Of a stretch of 64,000 nt of DNA, positions 2,937 through 22,166 are shown in pieces; positions within the stretch are counted from its first letter, which is position 1; the number at the start of each line of letters is the position of its first letter. The stretch is from Candidatus Multivoradales bacterium. GTDB lineage: Bacteria > Acidobacteriota > Thermoanaerobaculia > Multivoradales > J023. Location: NCBI GenBank assembly GCA_965248925.1, contig CBDFLE010000006.1, forward strand, positions 288,001 to 352,000, given 5' to 3'. The position numbers and the translations under genes are program-made. The notes below the pieces were generated by a model, which was not told the DNA's origin, did not search any database, and saw nothing but the letters and a program-made list of their open reading frames with translations.

Positions 2937-3769
2937 CAGGAAATCTCCGGCGACGGGGGTTGGGGGGAGGACTCGGCTGCGAGGGCGTCGACCAGGGTCT
3001 GGGTGGCGATTTCCTGCGCCTCGGCCCAGTCGGTCTCGGTGAAGCCGCCTCTGGCCAGCAGAGCTTGTGCCGAGGTTTCTCCGAGCGTCGCCTGCTCGAG
3101 GTGTACCCGGCCCAGGCCGCGAGAGGTCATGCCACCGATCAGAATGACCCCCTCATCGAGCATCTCGAGGGTCTTTAGCACCAGCGCCACCTGGGTGCTA
3201 TTGCAATTCTCCAGCAGGATCTCGAGAGCGAAGGCGGCGCCCGGCGGCACCACCTCGGTGTCGTACTTGACCCGCGGCTGGGCGACCCCGAGATCGCGAT
3301 TGATACCGACACCGTCGCGCACCTCGGTGCGGAGCAGGGTGGCGGGCACCAGGGGCAGGTCGCGCACAAAGACCCGCCCGCCGATCATCGTCGAGCCAAA
3401 GAGACCGCAGGTGATGCAGACTGTGCGGCAGACCTCGTCGAGGCTGACGCTGTCGCGCTGCTGCTTCGCCCTGGTCTCCAGAGCCGAGGTGCAGCGGCCC
3501 TGCTCATCCAGCACATCGCAGGCGCGAAAGTTCCCTTGACCTAGCCCACGAATCACCCGCTCGAGACCGCTGCGCAGAGCCCCTTTGATCGCGCTGCCAG
3601 GGAGATAGGGACGGCCGAGGGCGTCGCGCATGATGGGCTGATCTGTAGCTTCCGGATCCTGGGCCTTGCCGGCCCCAACTCGGATGCCGGAGACCGCTAC
3701 CAGCCGGGCTCGAATGCGGTGCCGGCTGGTCAAGGCTGCAAAAGAGGTGAACTCGAGAAAGGGGCTCAT
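2936..3769 (-). CDS. csx7: Type III RAMP Cas7 (Csx7/Csm3-like)
   Basis: Start reassigned to ATG 3769 (ATGA overlap). IRVGAG..ATDQPIMRD carries Asp at the Csm3 catalytic position; also PYLPGSAIKGALRS, CITCGLFGS and IGGMTSRGLGRV. Confidence 0.88.
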   Translation of the reverse strand: MSPFLEFTSFAALTSRHRIRARLVAVSGIRVGAGKAQDPEATDQPIMRDALGRPYLPGSAIKGALRSGLERVIRGLGQGNFRACDVLDEQGRCTSALETRAKQQRDSVSLDEVCRTVCITCGLFGSTMIGGRVFVRDLPLVPATLLRTEVRDGVGINRDLGVAQPRVKYDTEVVPPGAAFALEILLENCNSTQVALVLKTLEMLDEGVILIGGMTSRGLGRVHLEQATLGETSAQALLARGGFTETDWAEAQEIATQTLVDALAAESSPQPPSPEIS

Positions 3770-4350
3770 CGCCGACCTCCGCGGGGCCTCTGCCGGTGTT
3801 GGTTCCTGGGCCGGGTCGCCTTGATGCGCGCTGCGCTCCACTGCTCTTCTTTGAACCGTGCCACCTGATAGGTCTGCTCGCGGATGACGAATCCGATCAG
3901 CAGGGAGGCCAGCCGGCGGCCAGCCGCTTCCTGATCTTCGGCTTCGTCTTCGTCTTCGGTGGGGGCGCCGCCGAGCCGTTGCCGAACCTGCTTGTCGAGC
4001 AAACCGAGCAGTTCGTGGCCTGGGCCGGCATCGTGCCCCCAACCCCGGCTCCCGCGGCCGATCTGGTAGCGCAAGTAACTCTCGACCACGGCCAGCGGCT
4101 CATTTTGGGTGGTCGCCAGCAGGCTGCGAAGCTGCGAAGTAGTGACCCTTGGATCGGGGAATCGAGGGCGCCGCTGCGGATCCTCGCCCATGTTCATCCA
4201 TCTGGCAACTGCGTTAGCAAAGCGCTCCAAGAGCTTGCTGGAGGTTTGATCGGAAGGTTGATAGCTCTCTGACTTTTCAACGTAGGCTTGCGCGGCGACA
4301 ACCAGCGCGCTCTTCTGGGTTTCGATCCAGGCGAGGGATTCGGGGCTCAT
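3766..4350 (-). CDS. cas11: Cas11 small subunit (Csm2-like)
   Basis: TTSQLRSLL...YLRYQIGR motif; helical 194-aa protein translationally coupled between csx10 and cas7. Confidence 0.72.
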   Translation of the reverse strand: MSPESLAWIETQKSALVVAAQAYVEKSESYQPSDQTSSKLLERFANAVARWMNMGEDPQRRPRFPDPRVTTSQLRSLLATTQNEPLAVVESYLRYQIGRGSRGWGHDAGPGHELLGLLDKQVRQRLGGAPTEDEDEAEDQEAAGRRLASLLIGFVIREQTYQVARFKEEQWSAARIKATRPRNQHRQRPRGGRR

Positions 4351-6236
4351 TGTTCGGTCCTCCGGTCGGCCTTCCAGCCGGGTAGATGTAGATCGTCGGA
4401 AATGCGGACCCGGCCATAGCCCTGGGCGCGCTGACCGCCGAGCCCTCCGGACTCGATGGCCTCACACCGCGCGCGGTGTGAGGCGTCATCCGGCACCGCC
4501 AGAAGCAGGCAGGAGCCCACGCACACCACCGGTTCGAGATCCTTGAAACGGCCCGCCAAGGTGTCGAAGCCACCTCGCTGGTCAGCGCGGAGCGTCGCTG
4601 CCAGCAGCTCGGCGGCGGGCAGCTCGAGGGCCTGCAGGAAGGCCTGCAACACCGTCGTAGCTTGTGAGCCGGGGGCCAGGACCAGATCGTTCTCGAGGGT
4701 GACGGTGATCAGCAGTCGGCCGGGCCACGGCTCCTCCGCGGGTAGCTGACAAGTACTGCAGACCCGCCTCCAGGCTTGCCGCACGGCGGCATCCAGGGCC
4801 GCGAGGCGTGCATCGATCGAATCCTCGATCGCCGGCCGAACTCCGACCAGCTCAACTCGGCCGTAGCCTTGGCCACGACCGTGCCCGACCCGGATCACCC
4901 CCCGCTGAGCATCTTCGAGAAGCTGGCGTCCAGCAGCGTCCAGCCGGTCGACGCGGGCGCAGAAGCGGCTGCCGGGAGCAAGCAGGTCGAGGGAGAAGAG
5001 CTTGCCATCAACCCCCCGGCCACTGGCCACATCGAGGGCCAGGCGGGTGACCACCCGGCGCTCGGGCTCCACCGCATCCAGCCAACGGTCGACCGGCACC
5101 AGACGCGCGCCACAAGGCTGTCCCGCGGCCGGCGTGTGCCGACAGGTCTCGTCGAAGGCGCGATGGATACCGCGGTCGGCGAGCTGATTCTTGATCCAGC
5201 CCAGGATCAAGCGATCCATGCCACCGTGGGCCCAGCCTTCAAACTTGCAAACGCCAAGGGAGAGAGGTGCTGGCCGCGGCCGGCGGCGGTCTTCGCTATC
5301 GACGGCCACTCCATCGGCAAAGCGCAGGCAGGTCGATTCGTCGAGCAGCAGGCGGCGGAAGACCGGGTCTGCAGACTGATCCTCGGTAGTTCCGCGAGCC
5401 GTCATGGCGGCGGTCACCAGCGCGCCGCGCAGCGTCGAGGCGCGCACGAAGCCGAGACTGCGGTGGTAGTTGTTGGTGAGAAAGAGAGTATCGCCGAGAC
5501 AGAGGGGCTCTCTGGCCTCGAGGGTCAGCTCGAGTGAAGTGGCGTCGGGCAAAGGCAGGCTTGCCGGCATCTCGCCCCGGAACCTGGCGGCCGATACCGA
5601 CTCGAGGCGTATGCTCACCTGGCCGAGGCCCGCGGAACGACCGCCACCGATGGCGAAGACCGCTTCGGCCGCGGCCGCGAGACACTTGAGATCGTCGGCA
5701 CCATGCTCGGTATCGGCGAGCAGGTGGGTGACGTCGACCTCAGCGGTGAATGCCAGGCCATCGAGGAAGGGAGCGACCACCTGGCGGGCGAAGAGGTGGT
5801 GGTCCGCTGCTCGCCGGGAGCCGCGGCTCAGCGAGACCTGGTGGCGGGTTTCCAAGCCGCCACCGCGAGAGAACAAGTCGCGCAGGGCGGTGTCCTGCAA
5901 CAGCCCGTCGCTGATGTACACCCGGGTGGTGCCACCGCCAATGCGCTCGACCGAGGGCCCGCCACCCACCGCGGATGAACCCGCTGAGCTTGCCGTGCCG
6001 GCCGGCCCGGGCTCCTGGCCGAGGATCCGGCCGAGGGTCGCCCGCGCGGTCTCGGGCCTGACCGCCAGAAGCAGGCGGGTCAGCTGTTCGCGCAAAGCCC
6101 CATTGAGCGCCGTCGCCGGGATGAAGGGCACCCCCGCAGCGTCACGGGCGGTGGCGTCGTGAACCTCGGGCTGGGTAGTACCGCCGAGCAGCAACCCGCC
6201 GCGAGGCTCGACGATCAGACGATGGGTAATGCTCAT
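4347..6236 (-). CDS. csx10: Csx10 (Cas7-Cas5 RAMP fusion), type III-D-like
   Basis: Start reassigned to ATG 6236 (ATGA overlap with the cas10 stop). Three G-loops (IGGGRSAGLGQV, VGHGRGQGYGRV, LGGQRAQGYGRV), plus PFIPATALNGALRE and FVRASTLRGAL. Confidence 0.85.
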   Translation of the reverse strand: MSITHRLIVEPRGGLLLGGTTQPEVHDATARDAAGVPFIPATALNGALREQLTRLLLAVRPETARATLGRILGQEPGPAGTASSAGSSAVGGGPSVERIGGGTTRVYISDGLLQDTALRDLFSRGGGLETRHQVSLSRGSRRAADHHLFARQVVAPFLDGLAFTAEVDVTHLLADTEHGADDLKCLAAAAEAVFAIGGGRSAGLGQVSIRLESVSAARFRGEMPASLPLPDATSLELTLEAREPLCLGDTLFLTNNYHRSLGFVRASTLRGALVTAAMTARGTTEDQSADPVFRRLLLDESTCLRFADGVAVDSEDRRRPRPAPLSLGVCKFEGWAHGGMDRLILGWIKNQLADRGIHRAFDETCRHTPAAGQPCGARLVPVDRWLDAVEPERRVVTRLALDVASGRGVDGKLFSLDLLAPGSRFCARVDRLDAAGRQLLEDAQRGVIRVGHGRGQGYGRVELVGVRPAIEDSIDARLAALDAAVRQAWRRVCSTCQLPAEEPWPGRLLITVTLENDLVLAPGSQATTVLQAFLQALELPAAELLAATLRADQRGGFDTLAGRFKDLEPVVCVGSCLLLAVPDDASHRARCEAIESGGLGGQRAQGYGRVRISDDLHLPGWKADRRTEQ

Positions 6237-8101
6237 CTGCGATTCTCCGTTGCGCCGCCCATGAGGGAGCACAGCTCGATGGCATCGAGAAAATCCGTGC
6301 ACTTTCGGCCACCGCGCTCCTGCCACAGAAGCTCGTCGACGGTGGCCAGCTTCGGTTGACCCACCGCGCAGCGGAAAGCGGCCCATCCGAGCCGCTGGGA
6401 CTTGTCCTTGGCGCGGGCGTTTTGGTAGCGAAAGAAGCTCTGGCTCTCCCAATACCCGGTCTGGATGGCCCTGGCGACGGCGTGGATTTGGCTGCTGCCA
6501 ACATGCATGTGGAGGGCTTCGGCCCGCTGTGCCAACTCTTGGAACTCGGCAAAGCTGTAGGGCCGGAGAGTCAGCAACAGAGCGGGTTCGGGACTTGGAG
6601 GCTGAGCCGCGGAGCGCTCGAAGTGGGCGGCTCGCAAGGTCCGAATCGAGCCGTTGAGCGGGTTACCCGAGCGCAGCACCATGAAATCGACCGCACTGCG
6701 GATCGGCTGGCTCTCGACCTCGCGGCCCTCGCCATCGCCACGGCTCAAACCGCTGGCGTCGGTACTCTGGTGGATGCGCGCCTTGGCGTTCTTGAGCAGC
6801 TCGCGGGCATAGCCGAGGAGGATGCGGTCAGGAAACTTGTCATCGGCAATGGCCACCCCCACGCCGACACCGAACCGCTCCACCGCCTGGCGCAGGCCGG
6901 AGCTGCAAGACAAGACACTCCGCAAGAGCTGATTGTGGTCGGGGGAGAGGTGCTTCTCAAGCGCCGGGACCAGGGCGCAGATGAACCGGCTGGCATGGCG
7001 GGCGGAGAGCAGGACGACCAGGTCGTCGCCGCCGCGAATCGGCGCTTGGTAACGCCCTTCCTCGATGCCGCAGACCCGTACAGCCGCGGCCAGCGCCCGC
7101 TCGAAGGCGGACTCCACCGCCAGACTCAGGGCTCGATGCTGGGCGGGTGAGCCGACCCGGGAGAAGGACTGGCCAAAGTTGGCCCCATCGGCATAGACCA
7201 GGGCCAACATGGGATCGGTCTCCTGCTCGGCGAAGAGATCGTGCGAAGTTCGCGCCTGCTCGACCTCGCGGCGCAGCCGGCCGGCGGCCTGGCCGCGGGA
7301 TAGGCAGGGGGCGCAAACCTCCTCCCGCTGCTCGCCCCGTCGCCGGGGCGTGGTCGCGGGCCGCTCACCACAGGCCTGGCAGCGCTCACGCTGACGAGTG
7401 GCGGGGATCCTCGGCGGCAAGCGCAGGATGTCGGCACGGCGCCGGTCGAGCCTGGCGAAGAGTGCCGCCAGCACCGCCGGATAACCGCGGGACGGGCTCG
7501 GCACATCCCACTCCCCCACCCCCTCACCCACCGGGTCGCCGCCGACCTCGCCGGTTCCTTCTTCCTCCTCGAGGTCGCTGGGCCAGACCTCGAGTGCGGT
7601 GGCGGCGGTGACCAGGTCTCCATGGGTGGCCCGCTCAAGGGCCGCCTCAAGAGGCGCGATGACCGCTCGAGCACGGTGAGCCGGGGTCAACACCAGGCCG
7701 CCACCTGCGCCGCCGTAGACCTCTGCCAGCGGGGAGATCCCCTGGTCGCGCAGGATCGAGCTTGAGGAAGCTACCCCGCGAGTGCGTTTCTCATCGCTTG
7801 AGCCGTCTTCTCCGCGGGTCAGGTCGGCAACAACATTGCTACCCCCTTGTCGGTCACCGGGACGGGCGACTTTGAAGACATAGTGCTGGATGCCCGGGGT
7901 GTCGAAAGCGACCAGAGCCAACGGCGGCTGCTCGCCAAACAGCTGGCGAAGACGGCCGTGATCTCGGTCCTCGAGTGCCTTCAACACCTCGCTGACATCC
8001 GTGGCCCGGGCCGCCGCCTCCTGCTCGAGACAGAGGCGCATGCCGCCTGCGAGGTCAGCTTCGATCCGTTCGAATGAGTCTTGGGTCACGTTACTCTCCA
8101 C
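6233..8101 (-). CDS. cas10: Cas10 without HD domain, with intact palm cyclase motif
   Basis: FDTPGIQHYVF, Zn finger CQACG...CAPC, LVYADGANFG and IRGGDDLVV. Only 622 aa, with no N-terminal HD motif. Confidence 0.93.
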   Translation of the reverse strand: MESNVTQDSFERIEADLAGGMRLCLEQEAAARATDVSEVLKALEDRDHGRLRQLFGEQPPLALVAFDTPGIQHYVFKVARPGDRQGGSNVVADLTRGEDGSSDEKRTRGVASSSSILRDQGISPLAEVYGGAGGGLVLTPAHRARAVIAPLEAALERATHGDLVTAATALEVWPSDLEEEEGTGEVGGDPVGEGVGEWDVPSPSRGYPAVLAALFARLDRRRADILRLPPRIPATRQRERCQACGERPATTPRRRGEQREEVCAPCLSRGQAAGRLRREVEQARTSHDLFAEQETDPMLALVYADGANFGQSFSRVGSPAQHRALSLAVESAFERALAAAVRVCGIEEGRYQAPIRGGDDLVVLLSARHASRFICALVPALEKHLSPDHNQLLRSVLSCSSGLRQAVERFGVGVGVAIADDKFPDRILLGYARELLKNAKARIHQSTDASGLSRGDGEGREVESQPIRSAVDFMVLRSGNPLNGSIRTLRAAHFERSAAQPPSPEPALLLTLRPYSFAEFQELAQRAEALHMHVGSSQIHAVARAIQTGYWESQSFFRYQNARAKDKSQRLGWAAFRCAVGQPKLATVDELLWQERGGRKCTDFLDAIELCSLMGGATENRR

Positions 8102-8137: not shown

Positions 8138-8560
8138 CTACGCCGGCCGAGTCTTGTTGGTCAAGTGCGGCGATTCGGGGCCCATCCATTCGCCTGTAGC
8201 AACCCAGATCTCGAAGTAGTAGAGCCACATTGCGGTCCAAGGGACGATCGATTCTGAGAGCTTCTTCGAGGGGGACCACCGCCAGTCCTTTGGCCAGTAC
8301 AAGCAAAGACTGCGGTCGCCGTAGATGTGTGGCGTAGCCGGCGGAAAGGAGAATCTTGGTAGAGTCACCTTGGGCGATTTCCCGCGGTTGTGCTCAATCC
8401 TCACCTGATACGAAGGGGACAGCTCAGTAGGTTGAAGATGTCCCGACCACGAAAGACCGCTCTTACGATTTGGGCGTCCTTCAAACTGCGGAAAGTGTTG
8501 CCACATGGAGGCGATCTGGTGCGAAGGGTTGTCATCTGAGGTTCTCCGGACGCGGCTCAA
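8138..8560 (-). CDS. Prokaryotic E2 (ubiquitin-conjugating-like), short Cap2-type CBASS accessory protein
   Basis: WSGHLQP..YQVRI...PHIYGDRSLCLYWP..W...SIVPWTAMWLYYFEIW matches the bacterial E2 fold with a His..Cys active site; 4-nt overlap with the CD-NTase stop. Confidence 0.82.
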   Translation of the reverse strand: MSRVRRTSDDNPSHQIASMWQHFPQFEGRPNRKSGLSWSGHLQPTELSPSYQVRIEHNRGKSPKVTLPRFSFPPATPHIYGDRSLCLYWPKDWRWSPSKKLSESIVPWTAMWLYYFEIWVATGEWMGPESPHLTNKTRPA

Positions 8561-9597
8561 GGTCTGTCTCCATGAAAGCGCGTTGCAGTTGTCGAGATGC
8601 CATCCGGCCGGTCGGTAACTAAACCGGCTGGCGAAACATACGCCGCGCCGAGACTCCTCCCACTTGCCTCAAGGCTGGCGTGGCTCTTGACCTCTTCGTC
8701 CGTAGGCCAATGATCACCAAAAAGCGCTGACCAGCTGTCGATAGCCTCGTCCCGCTCACCGTCTACAGCCTTCCTGGCCTTCTTCGCCGCCTCTCGAATT
8801 CTGCGCATGAATGTCTCGAAGTGGCTTCTTTCCCAGCCAGTAGTGACAATGGCTCCCGTTTGAGGGTCAGGGATACGAGGAACGCCGATACCACTATCCA
8901 TGGGCTCTTCGTACTTCTCAGCGATATGTTCGAAGAAGCACATGAGAACCGTGTCGAGACCGTGACCTTCTGTCTCAATCGCTGCTGAGTCGATGGACTT
9001 GAAAGCCATGATCTCGAGAACATAACTCTTGATCCTACGATGCTTCATCTGGACATCACGCCACGACTTCAGCAGCTTGATGAGGCGAATCAAGTTGCCC
9101 TGGCTCTTTGCGTTGAGCGTCGAAAGACTCCTGGCGTATCCCAACGGATCAGAAACCAACCATTCTTCCTTTTTCCGATCCGGAATCTTTAGAGCTTTTT
9201 CAAGTCCGTTGGGAGCTACCGCCGGCACAATGTCCAGATGCACTTCCGGGTCTTCGAAGCAAAGGTGAATAGAGCGCCTTTGCGGTGATGCCTCGGCGGT
9301 CGCATCGGGATAGTCATCGAGAGCCTTCTTCAGCTCTCGCAGCACCGATTCTGGCGTTCGTTCGAGCGTCGCATCGTCATAGAACAGGAGTGTGTCAATA
9401 TCTTTGATGTCGAGGATCGCGGTTGACCGACTGTACGAACCGATGAGACGGGAATATGGGGCTACGGTCGTGAGATCGTCTCTCTCTTCGAGCCAGTCCC
9501 GAACTTGCGCGGGAAGCTCTCTTGCGTGTCTTGCTCGTTCGACAGATGGATTAACATTGTGCAGAAGTGCTGCGAAGTGTCTTGGGAGATTTGGCAT
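8557..9597 (-). CDS. cGAS/DncV-like nucleotidyltransferase (CD-NTase, SMODS)
   Basis: LIGSYSRSTAI..IKDIDTL (GS..DxD), HLDIVPAV, WLVSDP, LIKLLKSWR, KSYVLE, IPDP and WSALFGDHWP; tail ends RFHGDRP. Confidence 0.92.
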   Translation of the reverse strand: MPNLPRHFAALLHNVNPSVERARHARELPAQVRDWLEERDDLTTVAPYSRLIGSYSRSTAILDIKDIDTLLFYDDATLERTPESVLRELKKALDDYPDATAEASPQRRSIHLCFEDPEVHLDIVPAVAPNGLEKALKIPDRKKEEWLVSDPLGYARSLSTLNAKSQGNLIRLIKLLKSWRDVQMKHRRIKSYVLEIMAFKSIDSAAIETEGHGLDTVLMCFFEHIAEKYEEPMDSGIGVPRIPDPQTGAIVTTGWERSHFETFMRRIREAAKKARKAVDGERDEAIDSWSALFGDHWPTDEEVKSHASLEASGRSLGAAYVSPAGLVTDRPDGISTTATRFHGDRP

Positions 9598-9669: not shown

Positions 9670-11613
9670 TCACACTGTGCCACCCATCGCCGGCGAGACC
9701 AGGGTGATCGACCGCTCATAGCTCTTGTGCCCCTGTTTCTCGAAAGCGTATTCATACATCTGCACCCTGCCCAGGGTGTGGCTCAGCCGGCCAAGGGCCA
9801 AGGATAGTCCGATTGGCCCGGCAAGGAAAATGTGTGCTGTGTGGTGGTCGGAGGTCAGGCCGTCGATCCGAGCGATGAGCTGTTCGGCGAGAGCGCGGGC
9901 ATGGCCACCACCTTCGACGCCGGCCTGATCGGGTGTCTCGAAGCAGGCGTAGATCACCTTATTGACAACAGGTGGATCGAGGTCTTCGCGCTTCAAGTAG
10001 GCAGCGACCTTGTCGAGAATCGAGCGCGACATCTCAATGACGATGGCAATGTCCTCGGATGCCGGGTCGAGAGGAAAATCGTCAGTGATCCGCGCCTGAG
10101 ACGCGCCGGAATCCAGCCACTTGGGAGCGTTCGGCGGCTTGGGATCGCTGAAACGCCAGAGCTCACCGCTCTGGGTCATAGTGATCTCGCGCCAATCTTT
10201 GGCTGGTAGCAAAAAACCGGCCGTGAATCCGACGCTGAGCGGCGCGGTGATGGTGAAGTGGCAGGGGCTGGTCTGCGGCAGCTTTCTTTCCACCGTATCC
10301 CGTAGGGCATCCAAGATGGGGCCATTCCAGTAACAGGGGTCACGGACAAAACGCCCGTTGAAGTATTCCTCGAGATCGATCTCGTAGTCGCTCTGCTTGA
10401 CCGCGTGCTTGCCGCGGTCCCGGGTGTTGAAGATGGCGATCTTCTTTGCCGGGACCGCCGCGAAGTCTAGGTTGAGTACCCTGCCGTCTTTTGAGCGCAA
10501 GAAGAGGACGGGGGTTGACCGTTCTAGCTCGCCACTGGCCCCCTTGCGGTCGATGGCGAGCCGGCCTTCCGTAACGGCATCGTCGATCAGCGCATTGCGA
10601 TCGAGAGCGGCATAGAAGTCTCTGGTAAAGGCAGCTGCGGCATTTTCGGAGATGCTGAACTGCATGGCGACCACCGCCGGAACGCGGCGCGCGACCAACG
10701 CCGAGGCGACGCCGGCGAACGGATGATGTCCCTTGGCGTCGGCAGTCGGAATACAGCCAGTCGAGCACGAAGCAAGGGTAACCAGGCGCACGCTGTGGGG
10801 GATCTGGCGGGCCAGATCCTCTGCCGATACGAGGTGCTCGCTACCGTCCTCGCGTTCGAGAAAGAGGGCGCCGTCGCCCTCGGAGTTGAACCCACCGTGA
10901 CAGAGAATGTGCAGCGCGTGGTAAGGAACTAGATGTGCCTCGGCATCGACTAGCTCTTGGCGGAGAGCGTCGAGAGTTGGTTCCTCCAGCAGCCGGAGCT
11001 GCAGATATCGCGCCGAGCGAATCGCGTCTTTCAACACTTTCCTATGCCACGCTTTGTCAAACTTGCTGTAGCGATGACCGGGAGAGGTCTCAGGGTTCGG
11101 CGAGGCCACCAGACCGAGAATCTTGAGCGTTGGCGCCACGTCGAGGGCGGCGATCTTGTCGGGCAGGTCGAGATAGCGGGCGATGGGGGTCTCCCGCTCG
11201 CAACCGATGAAGCGAGCGGTGCCCGGATTGTAGAGCAGCTCCCAGGGCAGGCTGCCCAGAGCATGATTGTAGGGCTGGCCGAAGCTGAGGCGAAGTCGCA
11301 AGCCCTGGCCGGAGCCGAGCGCCGCCTCGCTCTGTTGAAAGGTCTTGCCGACTGCTCCGGAGAACAGGGTGTTGTAGAGCGCGGTGCCGATCTTCCGCGC
11401 CAACTCACGCCGCCGTGACGCGTGCTGATCACCCTGAATGAGCAGGCTCTCAAATTCCTGGACCCATGCTTCGATCGCGACCTGGTCGGCCGCGCGCATT
11501 GTAAAGCGAGCACGAGGTCGGTCTCGGGGCGATTCGAGTACTCGGATCTCCGGTTTCTGGCAGCAACACTGTCCGAGCTCGATCTCAAAATCTTGATAGC
11601 TAACTGTGCTCAT
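9670..11613 (-). CDS. CHAT (caspase-like) protease fused to a C-terminal SAVED domain
   Basis: CHAT: LGSLPWELL, LHILCHG (His), VTLASCSTG (Cys), VPAVVAMQFSI. SAVED: FTITAPLSVGFTAG, DIAIVIEMSRSI, HIFLAGPIGLSLALGR, VQMYEY. Confidence 0.88.
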   Translation of the reverse strand: MSTVSYQDFEIELGQCCCQKPEIRVLESPRDRPRARFTMRAADQVAIEAWVQEFESLLIQGDQHASRRRELARKIGTALYNTLFSGAVGKTFQQSEAALGSGQGLRLRLSFGQPYNHALGSLPWELLYNPGTARFIGCERETPIARYLDLPDKIAALDVAPTLKILGLVASPNPETSPGHRYSKFDKAWHRKVLKDAIRSARYLQLRLLEEPTLDALRQELVDAEAHLVPYHALHILCHGGFNSEGDGALFLEREDGSEHLVSAEDLARQIPHSVRLVTLASCSTGCIPTADAKGHHPFAGVASALVARRVPAVVAMQFSISENAAAAFTRDFYAALDRNALIDDAVTEGRLAIDRKGASGELERSTPVLFLRSKDGRVLNLDFAAVPAKKIAIFNTRDRGKHAVKQSDYEIDLEEYFNGRFVRDPCYWNGPILDALRDTVERKLPQTSPCHFTITAPLSVGFTAGFLLPAKDWREITMTQSGELWRFSDPKPPNAPKWLDSGASQARITDDFPLDPASEDIAIVIEMSRSILDKVAAYLKREDLDPPVVNKVIYACFETPDQAGVEGGGHARALAEQLIARIDGLTSDHHTAHIFLAGPIGLSLALGRLSHTLGRVQMYEYAFEKQGHKSYERSITLVSPAMGGTV

Positions 11614-11743: not shown

Positions 11744-12079
11744 TCAAGAGGTTGATTTCTTGGCTGTAGCACGAAGACCGCTCTTTGGCGGCGTAGGGTT
11801 GGCCGTGCCGTCGTCGTGACTCTTTTGCTGCCCCGGCATGGCTTCCACACCGAGGCCCGGCCGGGGACGATCCTTGGGTGCTGCCGGAAAGCTGTCATCG
11901 CCAGCGGCTGGTGCGTGCTTGCTGGTGGCACGGAGCGAGTTCGCTCCCTTGGGCTTGTCCTGACGTTCAGTTCCGCTGTCAGGCGCGCGGTCAGCGGCTG
12001 ACGGGTCAGAACTCGGGTCGGCAGCGGAGGTCGTTGGGGAAGAGCTGCTGGACGGCTTCTGCTGCGGGGCTTCGTGCAT
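11744..12079 (-). CDS. Small low-complexity, probably disordered protein
   Basis: AAGGAG lies 8 nt before ATG 12079; S/P/A/K/D-rich; co-oriented with its neighbours. Confidence 0.5.
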   Translation of the reverse strand: MHEAPQQKPSSSSSPTTSAADPSSDPSAADRAPDSGTERQDKPKGANSLRATSKHAPAAGDDSFPAAPKDRPRPGLGVEAMPGQQKSHDDGTANPTPPKSGLRATAKKSTS

Positions 12080-12214
12080 CTGGATCACTCCTTGCTTGGG
12101 GGTAGACGGCGGTCTGGGCGGGTAAGGCTGCGGTGCCTCGCCGCCGCCCCTCTGACTGCTTCGGAGTGTTGGTTCCCGCTGCGCGAGACTTCTAGGAAGA
12201 AAGTTCGAGAAAGG

Positions 12215-15200
12215 TCAGCCGTCGCCCTGGAGGACGAAGGGAGCCCAGTAGCGGGGTGCCGAGTAGCCATCCTGGGCCCGTAGCCAGCGCTGGGCATAGC
12301 GTAGCGCGGCTGCCGGAGTGCGACCGTGGGCCAGCATCTGCCGGTAGAACTCCGCCATCAGCAAAGACGCGGCGACATCGTCGACGCTCCACAGGCTGAC
12401 CAGCACCTGGCTGCTGCCCGCGTGGAAGAACCCCTGGGTCAAGCCGAGTAGCCCATCGCTACGGACTCTCTGGCCGAGGGCGGTCTGACAGCCACTCAGG
12501 ACCGTTAGATCGCTGGCCAGATGGAGGCTGTCGATCTCGTGCAGATACAACCCGCCGTCGACCTCACGACCGGCCCGATCGACCCTGGTCAGCAGCAGCC
12601 CTGAGAGTTCGGGGAAGCGCTCGTCAACCCAGGCATGGGTGGCGAAGTGGAGGATTCGGTAGGCTCCGAGATCGGCCGCCAGCACCGCCTGCTTGGTCGC
12701 CTGCCAGCCACGCAGCTGGAGCTGCTGATCGGCGGCGACTAACTCGCCAATGGCATCGGCCTCGAATGCCGTGGCCGGCAGACGAGGGAGCGGGCCATCG
12801 GGAAGGCGGTCGATGGAAACACCGCGGTCCGCTGGGACTGCGATCGCAGCCGGCTGTAGGGATCGCGGAGCTGCCGCGGAAGGCGAGTTTGCTGGTAGTC
12901 CGCCGGAGAGAAATCTTGAGTCACTAGCCGAGAAGACGGCATCGGCAAAGACCGCTACGCTCTTGTCAGCCTGCGCGCGACCTTCACGCCGCGCCCGCAA
13001 GGCAGCGAGTACCGAAGCCGAAGGAACCATGACCACTTCGAAATCTTCGAGCACCAGCCGGGGGCCGGCAGCGCCTCGATCTCCTCCTTCTGCTCGCGGA
13101 CTGGGCAGCACGCCGAAGGGAAGGTAGTGCAGCACTCCCTGGGCGATGATCAATAGGTGGCGGGTGCCGCTGGGAATGGCAGACTCCGGGAGCAACATTC
13201 GGCCCAGTTGGTCGGCGATCAAAAGCCACTGATCATTGTCCTGATCGGTGGACTTCAGGGCGGCATAGAGACCTTCGGCGTGGGCTTCCAAAACGGCTTG
13301 CGGGGGCAGGTCGAAAACCGCCAGGTGGCGAGAGGTCAGGGTCAGCAGGTGGCTCGACTCGGCACCGAGCACGTAGGTCAAGAGAACGCTCTCAGGTCCG
13401 AGCAGCGCCTGCGCCTCAGCGACAGTGATCGGCCGCGGCGATGCCAACAGCCCGCTGCTCCGTGCGGCAACTCGGCGAGTGGCGCGCTCGTCCTCCAGAT
13501 CGAGCTGTAGGTGGCGAATCTCCACCTCGATCTCGGCAACCGCAGAATCTCCGCTGGCAGGCCCTGCAGCCGCTTCCTGGCGCTTGGTGGCGAGGGCCGA
13601 AAGACGCTCCTGCAGCGCGCTCATGCGACTGTCTCGGCGAAGATTGGCCGCCATCTCGGCACCGGATCGGGTCGCCACGACCAGCTCGACGAGGCGGCGC
13701 GCACGAGTCTGGTCTGCGACCTCGAAGGCGCGCCCCAGGTCCGCTGCATCTCCCCTGCTGCGGTAGCGTGCGAGCAACAACGACACCTCCAGTGCGGCGT
13801 AGTCCTGCCACAGACCGATCGGCCGGAAACGATGTCCCTGCTCGCGGGCGCGCTCCCGCAGCGCCTCGACGATGTCGAGAGCCTTTCGAGCATGGTCCAG
13901 GGCACCGTCGAGGTCGTCGCGATGGCGGGCCAGGCGTGCCAGGCAGTAGTCGGTGTGGGAGCGGTCGTAGGCACCAACGTCGCCCTGCTCGCCGGCCTGC
14001 CCAACAGCGAGCGCGCTCAAGAAGAGCACAGCGGCTTCGGCGTGGCGGTCGGTCTCGGCGAACATGCAACCCAAGTTGGTACGGATGGTCGCCACGTAGC
14101 CCTCGGCATCCTTGAGCGAAGCGGCGATAGACGAGGCCCGCCGGTAGGATTCCTCCGCAGCCACCCGATCGCCGGTAGCGAGCAGCAGGCTACCCAGCCG
14201 ATCGAGCACGCCGGCCTCGCTCCAGCGATCCTCGTCCGCGCGGCGGAGAGAAAGCGCTTGCCGTAGGGGCTCCAGCCCCTGCTGCGACTCGCCACGCAAG
14301 TGGTGGATCCAAGCAATCGCCGCCAGAACTCCCGCCTCGCGCCGGCCAGCCCCCTCCTGCCGCACCAGCTCGAGGGCCTCGGCCAACACATCGAGCGCCT
14401 CCTGGTGATGATCGATGGTGCCTAGGGCCTCCCCCAGATTGTGCAATGCCTGGGCGGTCTCCAGCGGGTCGTCCATCGTCCGCCACAAGTCGAGCGCTCG
14501 CCGATAGCGATCCTGTGCCCGGTAGGGATCGCCAAGCTGCCAATCGACCAGTCCGCGGTTGGTCAGGGTCGCGGCTTCTCCCCGCGAATCACCGGCCCGG
14601 CGCGCCAGGGCCACGGTCTGGTCCAGGATCGTGGCGGCGCGATCCAGCTGGCCGGCTCGCGCCAGAGCACGACCTTCCCGAGCGCCAAGATTGACCCGCA
14701 GGCTGACCAGCCCGGCAGCTTCGGCGATCGCCGAGGCAGTTACGAAGCTCTCGATCGCCCGGTCCAGAAACCCGGCTTCAGCGAGCGCGTCCGCCAGCTC
14801 CCGCCAGGCGCCGGTAGCGCCGAGGGGCTCACCTGCCAAGGTCCACAGTCGGGCGGCCTCGGCGAATGCTGCGCGCTGGGCTTCGGGCTCCAGCGCCGAC
14901 CGCGCAAGGCGAAAAACTCGGGTCGCCTCGGCGCATCTTCGATCCTCCCCGGTCGCCGGACGCGAGTGCAAGATGCGCACCGCGTACCGGCCACCCGCTC
15001 GATACGGCCGGATGCCGATCTGGTAGATCCCTGCCTGGCGACTTATCCAGCAGACTCGCTCAGCGGCCAGAATGCCTAGTCGGTCGATGGTCAGGAGGGT
15101 CTGGCCATCGGGCGCCGTGACCTCGACCACTAGATCGACTTGGTCCTGGGTGGCTTGGAGCAAAACCGCGTGGCCCTGGGGAAGATCGAGCTGGTATTGA

Positions 15201-15457
15201 TGCTGGCTTCCTGATGAGAGAGAGGCAGTGCGTAGGACATCAACTTCGAGCGCGCTCTGCGGTATGACCCGTTCCGTGAGCTCGGGCAGCGCCAGGGCTG
15301 GCGATCCGGCCTGGGGCGGTTGATAGCCCGCGCGAGGATCTTCAGGGGTGCAGGCACTGAGCCCACCGAGCGCCACCAGCACAATGATAGTGGTCAGCGA
15401 ACAGCGCCGAGTCCAAAGCCGCCGGCGGCGAGCTGCTGGCGTCTCGAGGGGCGCCAT
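12215..15457 (-). CDS. TPR-CHAT domain protease, probable lipoprotein
   Basis: ATG 15457 follows the anti-sigma stop. Hydrophobic stretch with lipobox LSAC, TPR repeats (EAATLTNRG, AQALHNLG), and CHAT dyad ILHFATHA / LTVLSGCQTALG, ending YWAPFVLQG. Confidence 0.9.
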   Translation of the reverse strand: MAPLETPAARRRRLWTRRCSLTTIIVLVALGGLSACTPEDPRAGYQPPQAGSPALALPELTERVIPQSALEVDVLRTASLSSGSQHQYQLDLPQGHAVLLQATQDQVDLVVEVTAPDGQTLLTIDRLGILAAERVCWISRQAGIYQIGIRPYRAGGRYAVRILHSRPATGEDRRCAEATRVFRLARSALEPEAQRAAFAEAARLWTLAGEPLGATGAWRELADALAEAGFLDRAIESFVTASAIAEAAGLVSLRVNLGAREGRALARAGQLDRAATILDQTVALARRAGDSRGEAATLTNRGLVDWQLGDPYRAQDRYRRALDLWRTMDDPLETAQALHNLGEALGTIDHHQEALDVLAEALELVRQEGAGRREAGVLAAIAWIHHLRGESQQGLEPLRQALSLRRADEDRWSEAGVLDRLGSLLLATGDRVAAEESYRRASSIAASLKDAEGYVATIRTNLGCMFAETDRHAEAAVLFLSALAVGQAGEQGDVGAYDRSHTDYCLARLARHRDDLDGALDHARKALDIVEALRERAREQGHRFRPIGLWQDYAALEVSLLLARYRSRGDAADLGRAFEVADQTRARRLVELVVATRSGAEMAANLRRDSRMSALQERLSALATKRQEAAAGPASGDSAVAEIEVEIRHLQLDLEDERATRRVAARSSGLLASPRPITVAEAQALLGPESVLLTYVLGAESSHLLTLTSRHLAVFDLPPQAVLEAHAEGLYAALKSTDQDNDQWLLIADQLGRMLLPESAIPSGTRHLLIIAQGVLHYLPFGVLPSPRAEGGDRGAAGPRLVLEDFEVVMVPSASVLAALRARREGRAQADKSVAVFADAVFSASDSRFLSGGLPANSPSAAAPRSLQPAAIAVPADRGVSIDRLPDGPLPRLPATAFEADAIGELVAADQQLQLRGWQATKQAVLAADLGAYRILHFATHAWVDERFPELSGLLLTRVDRAGREVDGGLYLHEIDSLHLASDLTVLSGCQTALGQRVRSDGLLGLTQGFFHAGSSQVLVSLWSVDDVAASLLMAEFYRQMLAHGRTPAAALRYAQRWLRAQDGYSAPRYWAPFVLQGDG

Positions 15458-15458
15458 C

Positions 15459-16310
15459 TCATTCGGCGTAACGCAGTCGCAGGTTGTAGGCGGCAAGCTC
15501 GGTGGGCGCTGGTAGATCGGTTGTGGAGCCGGCAGAGTTGGAGCCACGGGTGCCGTATAGCCGTACGGTCCAAACACCTGCCGGCCAGCTGGACCGCTCG
15601 ACCAGGAAGGTGATGCGCCCCTGGTGATCTCGGGCCAGGTTCTCGCGACGCAAAATCTGCCGATCGTTCTCGTCATAAACCTCAGCAAAGTACCGGTCGT
15701 AGGTGGTCAGATCACCAGTTTTCAAGGTGGGAACCAGTGGGCCGGCACCTGCCGGGATCACCACCTCCCGCAGGCTCTCAGCACTGCGCAGAATGGCTGA
15801 GCCGTCCGGCGCCAGGCCAAAAACGAAGGGAGAACCAAGTTCCGCCACAGCGCTACCTTCAGGCACAAGCTTGGGAGAGCCGCTGTCGAAGGTGTCCCTC
15901 AGCACCATGCCACCTAGGGCGAGAGCCAGCAGCGCCGCGGTCAGCCAACCCCAACGCTGCCCATGGGACCAAGCGGCGGCTGGCCCTTGGCTCTCGCTCG
16001 CCCGAGCCTGCTTGAAGCGTTGCCAACTGCGGCGAGTGTCGAGTTCCGAGGGGAGCTGCGGCGATCCTTCGGGAACCACTGCGTCGAAAGCCTTGAGAGC
16101 CAGCAAATCTTCCTGGCAAGCCTCGCAGAGGATCACATGATCACCCACCTGGGCGTGCTCCGGCTCCCCGAGTCGGCCTTCCTGGTAAGCCAAGAGTGCA
16201 TCGCTTTCGGGGTGCCCAGTCAAGGCACGCTCCCGCTGAGCGGCCCAAGCCCGGGCAGCCGCTCGGAACTCTGGCTCGAGGTCGACTTGAGGGTCCTTTC
16301 GATCAGACAT
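15459..16310 (-). CDS. zf-HC2 anti-sigma factor, membrane anchored
   Basis: HP...LLAY..G.L...DHVILCEAC (HxxxCxxC), a TM segment WLTAALLALALGGMVL, and a C-terminal extracytoplasmic domain. Confidence 0.85.
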   Translation of the reverse strand: MSDRKDPQVDLEPEFRAAARAWAAQRERALTGHPESDALLAYQEGRLGEPEHAQVGDHVILCEACQEDLLALKAFDAVVPEGSPQLPSELDTRRSWQRFKQARASESQGPAAAWSHGQRWGWLTAALLALALGGMVLRDTFDSGSPKLVPEGSAVAELGSPFVFGLAPDGSAILRSAESLREVVIPAGAGPLVPTLKTGDLTTYDRYFAEVYDENDRQILRRENLARDHQGRITFLVERSSWPAGVWTVRLYGTRGSNSAGSTTDLPAPTELAAYNLRLRYAE

Positions 16311-16320
16311 AGGTCAAATC

Positions 16321-16896
16321 TCAGCGCGGCGAGCCACGGGGAGGCCGGAGAACGGCCTGGCGTAGCTTGGCGCGGGCTTGCTGGAGCCGCGAGGTTACAA
16401 GACCTAGCGGAATCCCTAGAATGGAGGCTATCTGCTCGTAGGAGCGACCGCCCGCAGCTAACACCAGCGGCTCGCGGAATTTCCCCTGTAGGTCGCCGAT
16501 TTTCCGCCGCACCAAGTTCAACTCCTGACGGTCGCTGGCCAGCAATTCCGGCCCGGCTTGGTCGTCCAGCAGCTGGATAGGTGCTCGATGGACGTCGCCC
16601 GGTAGCCGATCGAGGGGCAACTCGCTGGCGCTTCGTTTGCCGGCATAGCGAGCTTGTCGCTGTTTCAAACAACGGTTCTTGGCGATCCCAACGATCCAGG
16701 TATCGAGATCGCTGCGGCCCTGAAACTGCCCTCGATTGAGAGAGCGTTGCGCCAGAAGGAACGTCTCCTGAACCAGGTCTTCCGCATCTTCGGCCGAGAA
16801 ACCGAATCGCTGAATCTTGGCAAATAACTTGGGTAGAATTCGCCTGTGATCCGCTCGAGTGAGTTGATACCCCGACTGCCTTTCGTCGCCTGCCAT
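16321..16896 (-). CDS. ECF sigma-70 factor
   Basis: DAEDLVQETFL, TWIVGIAKN (region 2) and SYEQIASILGIPLGLVTSRL (region 4). Start is uncertain; the ORF is open to 16989. Confidence 0.92.
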   Translation of the reverse strand: MAGDERQSGYQLTRADHRRILPKLFAKIQRFGFSAEDAEDLVQETFLLAQRSLNRGQFQGRSDLDTWIVGIAKNRCLKQRQARYAGKRSASELPLDRLPGDVHRAPIQLLDDQAGPELLASDRQELNLVRRKIGDLQGKFREPLVLAAGGRSYEQIASILGIPLGLVTSRLQQARAKLRQAVLRPPRGSPR

Positions 16897-17550
16897 TCCG
16901 TTCCCAATTACCGCAGCGCCCGGCGGACAGCCACCAGCCAGCAGCACTGGCGGAGCCGCCCCTACAACCCAATCCCCTGAAATTCCCAATCTCGTTGCTC
17001 TCAGATCGACGCGTCATCATAGCCTATTGCCCCTAGTTGGCAGAAGAGGAAGAACTCGGCTCGCAAACCTGAAGAGGTCGCAGCAATCGGCTCCTCTTCT
17101 CTGTTGGTTCCCATCGGAGTCACAATCTTGAGGTACCGGCCACGAGATGCAGGCGGTCCAGGGTATCCCGCACCCCCTTCCAATCTCAGCTCTGACCTGA
17201 GCCCCCTCGCCCTGCTTTCTGGGGTCCTTCAGAGGGTCTCTCTCCATCAACAAACGAGGTGAAGTCACGCATCGAGCGAAGAACGTCACCAATGGGTGGC
17301 GCTCACCAATGCCGCGTCCGCCCCGGCTCCAGCTTGCTCGTCGAGCCAAGAGGGTAGCGAACAGGCCAATTGCCGGCCACTGCTCAGCCCAGATGGTTTG
17401 GTCCTGAACCCAGAAGGTACCGAGGGAAGCTTGACAACACGGATGGGCTAGGCCCCGCCGCTATCGGCCTCGCTGTGTGAACTCGAGGACCGGAAGGCCG
17501 ACGAAGCGGGTGGAACTGCCAGGCAGGCGAACCGCCAGCCGGCAGTCCAT

Positions 17551-17992: not shown

Positions 17993-18525
17993 CTCTCAAT
18001 GCCAGCAGTGGCGACAGGGCCGGCGACCGCGACGGTCCGGCCACCCTGACCTTTCAGTTGAATTTGTCTCAATGCCAGCAGTGGCGACAGGTCCGGCGAC
18101 CCCGTGTGACACTCCGTAAGTACCGTTAAACCAAGTGTCTCAATGCCAGCAGTGGCGACAGGTCCGGCGACAGCCAAGCTCTCCGCGAAGATCGGCGAGA
18201 TCGAAGGTCTCAATGCCAGCAGTGGCGACAGGTCCGGCGACCCAACCAAAAAAGGTTACAATCTTCTTCGGTCGAAAGGGTCTCAATGCCAGCAGTGGCG
18301 ACAGGTCCGGCGACTTGAAGGAGGCTGACCTCCTTGGGCAGTCATTGAAGTCTCAATGCCAGCAGTGGCGACAGGTCCGGCGACTGGAACGGAAACCTTT
18401 GACCGGTATTAAAGCCAGAGTCTCAATGCCAGCAGTGGCGACAGGTCCGGCGACCCTCCTAGTGTTGTTGTTTAGTAGTTGTGCAGGAAAGTCTCAATGC
18501 CAGCAGTGGCGACAGGTCCGGCGAC
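17993..18525 (-). CRISPR. CRISPR array 1: 8 repeats, 7 spacers (35-38 nt)
   Basis: 35-nt repeat GTCGCCGGACCTGTCGCCACTGCTGGCATTGAGAC on the minus strand, with a GCCA/TGGC stem before the 8-nt ATTGAGAC handle; degenerate repeat at the distal end (17993). Confidence 0.98.
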
Positions 18526-18831: not shown

Positions 18832-19128
18832 CTAGCGCACCCTCGCCAGCTCTTCGTCCGGTGGCTCGATATCACCAAAACCGACACTCTTCGCCGCGCA
18901 GCGAGAGCACACCCGGTACATCCGCACCGAGCCGTTCTCCTTGATTCGTAGAACCTTCTTCAGCCGATCCCTCAGCTTGGTCACATCAGCCTCCCGCAAG
19001 CGGCATTCAAACACCGAGTACTGCACCCGCTCGCCCCAACCCTCGAGCACGTCCGCCACCCTACACCGCACTCGGTCCGAACGGATGTCATAGGTCACCA
19101 GCCACAAGTGAGCTGTCGCTGCCATCAC
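18832..19128 (-). CDS. cas2: Cas2
   Basis: WLVTYDIRSDRVR...GWGERVQYSVFEC; overlaps the cas1 stop. Confidence 0.96.
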   Translation of the reverse strand: MMAATAHLWLVTYDIRSDRVRCRVADVLEGWGERVQYSVFECRLREADVTKLRDRLKKVLRIKENGSVRMYRVCSRCAAKSVGFGDIEPPDEELARVR

Positions 19129-21998: not shown

Positions 21999-22166
21999 GA
22001 ATCCTCCTGGGTGCGCGGCCGCCCTGCCGGCCAGGCTGCAAGTGGCATCTTCCAGCCTTCTGGGCACTTTCTTGTCCTGGCTGGCTGGCCAAAATCCTCA
22101 AGCCCATGCCCAAGGCGCGTGCTTCGGCGATTGTCCGCAGTGTCATATGCAATGTCATTTGAAATC

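Follow-up and report, generated by a model that had tools for sequence, protein, structure and literature searches.

Here we describe a gene in a 64,000-nucleotide stretch of the genome of Candidatus Multivoradales bacterium (phylum Acidobacteriota; NCBI GenBank assembly GCA_965248925.1, contig CBDFLE010000006.1, positions 288,001 to 352,000 of the forward strand) that encodes a CHAT protease domain followed by a SAVED domain. The whole stretch is called the window, and positions are counted from its first letter. The CHAT-SAVED gene occupies 9670..11613 on the minus strand and specifies 647 amino acids from an ATG start; that strand carries every gene between about 22 kb and 1 kb. In order of transcription, the run begins with a clustered regularly interspaced short palindromic repeats (CRISPR) array, a Cas6-reverse transcriptase (RT)-Cas1 gene and a second array, continues with genes for an extracytoplasmic function (ECF) sigma factor, an anti-sigma factor and a TPR-CHAT protein, and then passes through a small open reading frame (ORF), CHAT-SAVED, a CD-NTase and an E2 protein to Cas10 and the remaining type III-D set.

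The domain content of the CHAT-SAVED protein was established by profile search, alignment and structure prediction. Pfam places a CHAT domain (PF12770) at residues 74-356 (window 10546-11394, minus strand; E 2.9e-25, 89.7 bits against a cut-off of 24), a match that is near full-length, covering profile positions 2-268 of 289. A SAVED domain (PF18145) follows at residues 435-638 (E 1.2e-20, 74.5 bits, cut-off 26.2) and is also recognised by NCBIfam NF033611 (85 bits, cut-off 33); we annotate this C-terminal domain at 9700-10461, minus strand. The catalytic dyad can be read directly—His239 in the motif ILCHG (residues 236-240; codon at 10897-10899) and Cys283 in ASCS (residues 281-284; codon at 10765-10767)—and both residues are invariant in an alignment of full-length homologues (29 of 29), which share 30-72% identity with the window protein. 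An AlphaFold2 model built on this alignment has a mean predicted local distance difference test score (pLDDT) of 87.7 and a predicted template modelling score (pTM) of 0.85. Searched against the PDB with Foldseek, its C-terminal half matches SAVED receptors: EcCap4 (7yib, E 3.2e-14), 7qqk and 6vm6 rank highest, and the matches include TIR-SAVED bound to cyclic triadenylate (cA3), AbCap4 bound to cyclic trinucleotides, and Cap5. For its N-terminal half the matches are CHAT proteases, namely Csx29/TPR-CHAT, separase and the filament of SAVED-CHAT (8tl0), at E 1e-9 to 1e-7. The alignment profile gives a similar picture against the PDB: residues 385-638 match Cap4 (7yib) at E 1.8e-34, 8tl0 is matched in its CHAT part at E 8.8e-10, and 8rot, a 991-residue entry labelled "CHAT domain-containing protein", at E 1e-5.

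The two domains, the dyad and the fold are far beyond chance. An earlier reading of the gene from its letters alone, here called the sequence-only reading, had reported an intact His and Cys in an N-terminal CHAT domain followed by SAVED; Pfam, NCBIfam and the 29-homologue alignment bear this out, and profile searches and structure prediction confirm both domains, the C-terminal one being SAVED. Its observation is thus confirmed, and its interpretation, a separately assembled nucleotide-gated protease, is supported in part. As a separate observation, a Cys-Cys-Cys run lies at residues 16-18 (window 11560-11568; RCCCG or QCCCQ) in an N-terminal beta-hairpin; it is kept in most homologues above 48% identity and is gone in distant ones.

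The SAVED-CHAT protein of Haliangium ochraceum (Steens et al.) is likewise a fusion of SAVED and CHAT that is linked to a type III system and has relatives in operons of the cyclic-oligonucleotide-based antiphage signalling system (CBASS). It is described as cA3-gated and filament-forming (10.1101/2023.06.23.546230), and as rare, with 3 of 1113 type III loci (PMC11229360). In that protein SAVED (residues 1-296) comes first and CHAT second, with a linker at 297-304 and the dyad at H375/C422 (10.1101/2023.06.23.546230), and PDB 8tl0 has its CHAT domain at 287-451 of 496 residues; the present protein has CHAT and then SAVED. The sequence-only reading was therefore correct about the characterised SAVED-CHAT and about the opposite order here. 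Its claim of separate assembly also holds up: the SAVED domain of the present family is Cap4-like, the Haliangium SAVED is not detectable from it by sequence, and only the CHAT part matches 8tl0 by sequence, so that, judged by their sequences, the two proteins look like separate fusions. A further difference concerns the substrate, which for SAVED-CHAT is a PCaspase (Peptidase_C14). No counterpart lies near the present gene—of the seven Peptidase_C14 matches in the genome, none comes within 565 kb of the window, in agreement with the earlier statement that no PCaspase is adjacent—and its partners are instead a sigma factor, an anti-sigma factor, a periplasmic TPR-CHAT and a small protein. By domain order, Cap4-like SAVED and lack of a PCaspase, the window protein is outside the SAVED-CHAT family as defined; by analogy, it most probably works similarly. 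As to naming, in the PADLOC model PDLC02016 "SAVED_CHAT" (498 positions) the CHAT core aligns at 126-250, or at 102-316 in relatives, which suggests that the model itself represents CHAT-in-front proteins and that such proteins may already carry that name.

Two other groups of known proteins resemble one half of the protein each. Cap4 (7yib, 6vm5, 6vm6) has the closest SAVED domain by both sequence and structure, and its structures list cyclic trinucleotide ligands; unlike the present protein, it carries an effector endonuclease N-terminal to SAVED, in the place occupied here by the CHAT protease. Csx29, the TPR-CHAT of the type III-E Craspase, shares the CHAT fold (7zoq, 8eex, 7y9x) and is a CRISPR-linked caspase-like protease, but it has no SAVED domain, and Craspase is switched on by RNA binding within Cas7-11 and not by a diffusible nucleotide. 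For the CHAT-then-SAVED architecture itself, we found no characterised member in the literature searched. The only paper there that pairs an N-terminal CHAT with SAVED is that of Bernal-Bernal et al. (2024, PMC11506125), where a CHAT-then-SAVED effector appears in the legend of Fig. 1 as part of the DdvS/DdvA island of Myxococcus xanthus. The order is thus already on record, uncharacterised, and the likeness between the two proteins is one of description only.

Homologues spanning both domains were found at 19 distinct loci, including the window. Five of these (L001, L002, L006, L019 and L031) come from a set of 79 loci, the other 74 of which matched the CHAT part alone. L080 (cut at a contig end), L082 and L143 come from a metagenome scan of at least 80 loci, mostly CHAT-only among the matches listed; L081 (a 2.8-kb contig with no context) and L139 (a CHAT-only ORF) were dropped from that scan. 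L170-L179 come from 41 related genomes, with L168 and L169 left out as duplicates of L002 and L001. Contigs of the 23 closest homologues, P0007 (72% identity) among them, do not enter the locus counts. CD-NTases were counted by a local profile run over all six-frame ORFs of the loci, together with PADLOC and Pfam.

Type III genes (Cas10, Cmr or Csm) accompany the homologue at 10 of the 19 loci (window, L001, L002, L006, L019, L031, L170, L172, L175 and L178); L080, with a Csm6-type HEPN ORF and nothing else of this kind, is left out of this count. At L001, L002 and L006 the homologue is directly upstream of cas10 with nothing between, and L002 has the gene order of the window: sigma, anti-sigma, TPR-CHAT, small ORF, CHAT-SAVED, cas10. 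At L172, where no CD-NTase was found, cas10 is a few kb off, past the sigma, anti-sigma and TPR-CHAT genes. A TPR-CHAT gene is present at 13 loci (window, L002, L006, L080, L082, L143, L170, L171, L172, L175, L176, L177 and L179), that of L172 being counted on tblastn alone, and sigma and anti-sigma genes occur together, by tblastn, at 12 (window, L002, L006, L080, L082, L143, L171, L172, L175, L176, L177 and L179); the contig of L170 begins inside its TPR-CHAT gene, so that any sigma and anti-sigma genes would fall outside it. A CD-NTase stands beside CHAT-SAVED at only three loci (window, L019 and L176) and at none of the other 16. L176 combines the CD-NTase with ThiF-type E1/E2 and JAB proteins and has no cas gene within 11 kb; the genome that carries it, G008, has exactly one CD-NTase, that of L176. 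In the whole genomes G011, G009 and G020, which are 94-98% complete and carry L002, L001 and L172 respectively, a search for the SMODS family (PF18144, E<=0.001), the one synthase family covered, found no gene. Because these three related genomes have the gene beside cas10 and no CD-NTase, Cas10 is, from this comparison, the predicted usual signal source for the family. We read CHAT-SAVED proteins as primarily ancillary effectors of type III CRISPR systems that can apparently also couple to CBASS.

Several observations on these loci stand apart from the counts. Peptidase_C14 matches occur at 3 of the 19 loci (L082, L171 and L175) among the ORFs scanned, which were not every ORF; they belong to large proteins of 724-1132 amino acids that adjoin TPR-CHAT (L082:16621-18795, L171:388-3786 and L175:1150-3630) and may be PCaspase-like second proteases. 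The window's own genome holds a second CHAT-SAVED paralogue with 31% identity (G000:C6:4123212-4124957, the L170 locus), with Cas2/RT/Cas1 genes on one side and a III-B set of Cmr1-6 and Cas6 on the other; a TPR-CHAT gene and a transposase lie some 6 kb off. At L019 (11845-15034), a CD-NTase and a TIR-SAVED gene lie between CHAT-SAVED and cmr6 of a III-B locus, which again places a piece of CBASS within CRISPR genes.

Both kinds of signal maker are found downstream of the CHAT-SAVED gene in the window. The type III-D-like Cas10 gene (6233..8101, minus strand; PADLOC Cas10 E 3.3e-37, Pfam Cas10 palm2) has an intact GGDD cyclase motif at residues 357-360, and the motif is intact in all four III-D Cas10 proteins checked. 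Between the protease gene and cas10, beginning 72 nucleotides after the former and on the same strand, lie a CD-NTase of 346 amino acids (8557..9597, minus; Pfam SMODS E 4.8e-18, PADLOC cyclase E 3.5e-59) and an E2-only ubiquitin-conjugating-like protein of 140 amino acids (8138..8560, minus; PADLOC E2 models, E 1.1e-39). The CD-NTase motifs G53-S54 and D66-x-D68 are intact; the only cysteine of the E2 is Cys86, the E2 start overlaps the stop codon of the CD-NTase, and the PDB match of the E2 is 8hsb_B, labelled "E2" (E 5e-13). The first PDB match of the CD-NTase is an unannotated CD-NTase (9sa4, E 4e-26), followed by entries labelled CdnD and cyclic AMP-AMP-GMP synthase (E ~3e-9) and by one labelled CdnC. 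Its closest relative (L185, 58% identity) belongs to a CD-NTase-E2-NucC operon, the E2 being 40% identical, and the next (L184, 34%) stands with E1/E2, a JAB protein and a Cap4-type endonuclease-SAVED effector. NucC and SAVED-CHAT are both described as cA3-activated (PMC11229360).

The pair appears to be foreign to its surroundings. Guanine-plus-cytosine content (GC), overall and at third codon positions (GC3), is 0.541 and 0.573 for the CD-NTase and 0.570 and 0.688 for the E2, against 0.61-0.69 and 0.73-0.79 for the flanking genes; a gene like this CD-NTase was found in 3 of 401 genomes sampled from the phylum, the window's own included, and it is the only SMODS-family gene of its genome in a whole-genome PF18144 search. 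Because of this low GC and rarity, the pair looks like a later, horizontally acquired insertion, and one that came without an effector of its own: no other CBASS-type effector adjoins it. The arrangement resembles E2-only (type II short) CBASS in that a CD-NTase is followed by an overlapping single-cysteine E2, a pair seen also in L185; it differs in that the L185 pair precedes NucC, whereas here the sole adjoining SAVED effector is the CRISPR-linked protease. We considered a swap of the SAVED domain on arrival of the CD-NTase and rejected it, since the identities to the CD-NTase-free orthologue P0022 track each other in the two halves (SAVED 51.9%, CHAT 47.9%).

Upstream, the protease is joined to a regulatory set. 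The ECF sigma factor (222 amino acids; 16321..16989, minus) matches Pfam Sigma70_r2 (E 6.5e-10) and Sigma70_r4_2 (E 1.5e-8). The anti-sigma factor is a single-pass protein of 283 amino acids (15459..16310, minus) that was aligned with 10 homologues; it has an N-terminal HxxxCxxC domain, a membrane helix at about 120-137, as read from the sequence, and a periplasmic domain of about 140 residues, and its homologue in L082 matches Pfam zf-HC2. The TPR-CHAT gene (12215..15457, minus; 1080 amino acids) has a Pfam CHAT match (E 5.4e-59) and TPR repeats. Its listed ORF reaches 15688, and the likelier start is the ATG at 15457, one base past the anti-sigma stop. The N-terminus has an Arg-rich stretch, a hydrophobic stretch and then L-S-A-C; the lipobox residues A112/C113 and the dyad residues H1018/C1067 are invariant in a five-sequence alignment, and the protein is predicted to be an exported, periplasmic lipoprotein.

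TPR-CHAT is thus a second clan-CD protease directly adjacent to the CHAT-SAVED region, on the predicted periplasmic side. Two relations between the proteases were considered. A recent origin of TPR-CHAT as a paralogue of the CHAT domain of CHAT-SAVED was rejected, as BLASTP detected no similarity between the two CHAT domains (E 0.32). A role for TPR-CHAT as a cytoplasmic, PCaspase-like substrate is unlikely, because the invariant lipobox predicts that it is exported. Against the PDB, TPR-CHAT found TPR proteins only among the matches listed (16 by sequence, and the best 60 of 160 by profile).

The regulatory genes and the protease operon share a promoter-like motif. GGAAC is the usual -35 core of ECF promoters, and a candidate -35 element of this kind, GGGAACCAAC, lies at 17103..17112 on the minus strand, 114 nucleotides upstream of the sigma gene. 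A second copy of GGGAACCAAC lies at 12168..12177, also minus, 37 nucleotides past the TPR-CHAT stop and about 90 nucleotides upstream of the small ORF. These are the only two copies in the 64-kb window, both on the minus (coding) strand, against an expected 0.02. In L080 the same 10-mer, GGGAACCAAC, stands upstream of both the sigma gene and the small ORF; in L002 an identical or similar motif precedes the sigma gene, and L002 and L001 have GGGAACTAA upstream of the small ORF. Described as GGGAAC(C/T)AA, the motif lies 72-98 nucleotides before the small ORF in L080, L002 and L001. The word GGAAC is absent from the upstream stretches examined of L176, L177 and L082, and the motif is therefore specific to the close clade. 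As a candidate sigma-dependent promoter, the copy at 12168-12177 would serve the small ORF as well as CHAT-SAVED and the genes downstream.

The small ORF (11744..12079, minus) would encode 111 amino acids, polar, low in complexity and probably disordered. It has a strong ribosome-binding site, AAGGAG-N8-ATG, and no match in PADLOC. Counterparts of about 70-137 amino acids are present at all four close-clade loci for which the upstream DNA was covered (window, L002, L001 and L080), where they sit between the promoter motif and the protease gene and have an AAGGAG-type site 6-8 nucleotides before the ATG. They have in common a DDG(T/S)-like stretch and a C-terminal K-x-G-[LVN]-[GR]-[LVA]-[ET]. 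Inspection by eye of three-frame translations at 13 more distant loci, which was not systematic, found no counterpart. Taken together, these features suggest that the window ORF is likely to be coding and translated, and its product is a candidate partner or substrate of the protease.

The one experimental precedent that we found for this regulatory set comes from M. xanthus. There, the ECF sigma factor DdvS and the anti-sigma factor DdvA, whose periplasmic part is a TPR-CHAT, are described as driving four promoters, which serve a CD-NTase, the CHAT-SAVED effector, a type II CBASS and a III-B CRISPR system (PMC11506125). Beyond the domain order of the effector, what the M. xanthus island shares with the window is an ECF sigma factor and a membrane anti-sigma system that includes a periplasmic TPR-CHAT, together with a CD-NTase, CBASS of the E1/E2 type and type III CRISPR. 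Three differences stand out. Anti-sigma factor and TPR-CHAT are one protein in M. xanthus (DdvA) and two genes here, the TPR-CHAT having its own signal peptide and lipobox; the CRISPR system is III-B there and III-D here; and the M. xanthus effector has a CD-NTase of its own (type I CBASS), whereas most relatives of the present gene are without one. The sigma factor, anti-sigma factor and TPR-CHAT most likely form a DdvS/DdvA-like switch that has been split into separate proteins, and this switch would drive transcription of the operon from the GGAAC-type promoters.

From these elements we put together the following reading, to which we give somewhat better than even confidence as a whole: CHAT-SAVED is a cytoplasmic protease gated by a cyclic trinucleotide and probably fed by both Cas10 and the CD-NTase. 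The Cap4-like SAVED domain would bind a cyclic oligonucleotide; its nearest SAVED relatives suggest a cyclic trinucleotide, for example cA3, as the most likely ligand. Binding would lead to self-association and so switch on the His239/Cys283 dyad, by analogy with the ligand-driven oligomerisation described for SAVED-CHAT (10.1101/2023.06.23.546230) and for CalpL and TIR-SAVED (PMC11229360). The protease belongs to a conserved module—ECF sigma factor, membrane anti-sigma factor, periplasmic TPR-CHAT lipoprotein, small disordered protein and CHAT-SAVED—that is mostly attached to type III systems. The CD-NTase cassette, having arrived without an effector, would make a ligand of the class that the resident protease was already receiving from Cas10, and the window protease would then probably answer two signal makers, the adaptive Cas10 and the innate CD-NTase.

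As to what the protease cuts, the sequence-only reading had proposed the neighbouring small protein, the cytoplasmic part of the anti-sigma factor or the tail of the CD-NTase. The first two are reasonable candidates because both are conserved neighbours. On the third, our comparisons gave no evidence for or against; proteolytic cleavage of a CD-NTase loop is described as able to activate CBASS (PMC12991175). We consider the small protein the leading choice, though unlikely by itself to be the answer, and the cytoplasmic domain of the anti-sigma factor a slightly weaker one; other or broad targets take up the rest of the probability, and broad, host-killing proteolysis is possible. A fuller scheme, in which one SAVED-gated protease acts as an OR-gate between adaptive and innate immunity, with inputs from a crRNA-guided Cas10 and from a phage-sensing CD-NTase/E2 pair, targets the small protein or the anti-sigma factor and thereby feeds back on the ECF-sigma-controlled island, is conceivable, though we would sooner bet against it than for it.

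Several points weigh against the reading of a doubly fed, trinucleotide-gated protease. Ligand, oligomerisation and proteolysis are inferred for every member of this architecture, and 7 of the 19 loci have neither cas genes nor a CD-NTase in the DNA fetched, some of those contigs being only about 9 kb long. The conserved linkage to sigma and anti-sigma genes could be explained by regulation alone, from which no protease-substrate relation follows. The small proteins are of low complexity and align at just 20-22% identity, GC in the window's small ORF is flat across codon positions, and the -10 part of the proposed promoters is poorly conserved. On the side of the signal, the CD-NTases of E2-only CBASS are described as mostly clade G (PMC12948482), and if the window CD-NTase makes a dinucleotide, there may be a mismatch with this SAVED domain.

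This last concern leads to the alternative that only Cas10 feeds the protease, with the CD-NTase and E2 being a remnant, serving a distant effector or making a signal that the SAVED domain does not read. We consider it unlikely, although there are points in its favour: orthologues are present in genomes without a CD-NTase (G011, G009 and G020), the pair is foreign in base composition, and the clade G assignment of most E2-only CD-NTases (PMC12948482) points the same way. Against it are the place of the pair inside the operon, close behind the protease gene on the same strand and with catalytic motifs intact, and its standing as the sole SMODS-family gene of the genome with no other CBASS-type effector adjoining; in addition, the nearest relatives of this CD-NTase serve NucC and Cap4, which are described as responding to, or have structures with, cyclic trinucleotides, and this is the ligand class expected for this SAVED domain.

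A second alternative concerns output instead of input. The protease could be regulatory, cutting the cytoplasmic part of the anti-sigma factor to free the ECF sigma factor for transcription, not for broad killing. This follows the type III-B CalpL system, in which CalpL, after ligand-driven self-association, cuts the anti-sigma factor CalpT and frees the sigma factor CalpS (PMC11229360). The two systems are alike in placing a SAVED-gated protease alongside a sigma/anti-sigma pair; they differ in that CalpL has a Lon protease and a cA4 ligand, and CHAT takes that place here. The anti-sigma proteins differ as well, as the one here has a predicted membrane helix and CalpT is soluble. Sigma and anti-sigma genes persist at five loci where no cas gene or CD-NTase was seen (L082, L143, L171, L177 and L179, among the 12 of 19 that have them), which speaks for a regulatory protease, as do the description of Craspases as targeting putative anti-sigma factors (PMC11506125) and the presence of PCc-sigma in the SAVED-CHAT/PCaspase locus, though SAVED-CHAT itself left PCc-sigma uncut (10.1101/2023.06.23.546230). 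The M. xanthus precedent, however, explains the linkage by transcriptional control from a periplasmic signal (PMC11506125), and candidate sigma-type promoters lie upstream of both operons here; we regard the regulatory protease as doubtful.

It is improbable that the window holds a plain E2-only CBASS operon beside a III-D locus, with Cas10 playing no part. CHAT-SAVED, CD-NTase and E2 are indeed contiguous and co-oriented, the SAVED domain is closest to that of the CBASS receptor Cap4, the L176 module comes with a full type II CBASS and no cas gene nearby, and the M. xanthus protein is annotated as a CBASS effector (PMC11506125). Yet 16 of the 19 loci are without a CD-NTase and 10 have type III genes, orthologues with 48-49% identity stand directly upstream of cas10 in SMODS-free genomes, and the protease gene does not share the GC content of the CD-NTase and E2 genes. 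The idea that the CHAT domain is catalytically dead or a scaffold, making the protein a nucleotide sponge or sensor with no protease output, draws on the incomplete active site described for the DdvA CHAT (PMC11506125) and is very improbable, given a dyad that is invariant down to 30% identity, a full-length match to the Pfam CHAT model and a structure model that matches active CHAT proteases.

The rest of the CRISPR locus lies on either side of these genes, on the minus strand. Downstream of and partly overlapping cas10 are a Cas7-Csx10 fusion (4347-6452), a Csm2-like gene (3766-4350) and three Csm3/Cas7 genes (2936-4042, 1917-2936 and 1010-1900), identified through PADLOC, Pfam and NCBIfam matches. 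Upstream of the sigma gene, arrays of 8 repeats (about 17993-18525) and 21 repeats (about 22383-23857) belong to one repeat family of 35 nucleotides, with 29 copies in all spaced 70-75 nucleotides apart; between them is the Cas6-RT-Cas1 fusion gene (19125-22067; 980 amino acids), whose Cas1, reverse transcriptase and Cas6 parts are found by Pfam and PADLOC. Beyond the arrays are three ORFs of 797 amino acids each (24394-26787 and 29530-31923 on the plus strand, 34583-36976 on the minus strand). The first, the only one of the three scanned, has Pfam Transposase_29 and HTH domains, and the three equal lengths appear to reflect several copies of one insertion element. Farther along, an open frame of more than 4385 amino acids (50809-63999, minus) runs past the end of the window.

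We group the protein with the nucleotide-gated defence proteases of CBASS/CRISPR hybrid islands. Three features of its locus are most notable: a CD-NTase+E2 pair that appears to have been captured without an effector, a DdvA-like regulator split into two genes, and a small ORF that is conserved in the close clade. The class of protease effectors that respond to cyclic nucleotides is recent and still small, made up of CalpL and SAVED-CHAT, and CHAT-SAVED would add a third, independently assembled design, with concrete candidate substrates encoded nearby, namely the small protein and the anti-sigma factor. With both kinds of signal maker beside the effector, the window lends itself to testing whether the CRISPR and CBASS signals meet at a single protein. 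Together with its sister loci, which are without the CD-NTase pair, it appears to show one step of how CBASS and type III CRISPR systems exchange parts—an exchange that would run in the reverse direction to the co-option described for Haliangium.

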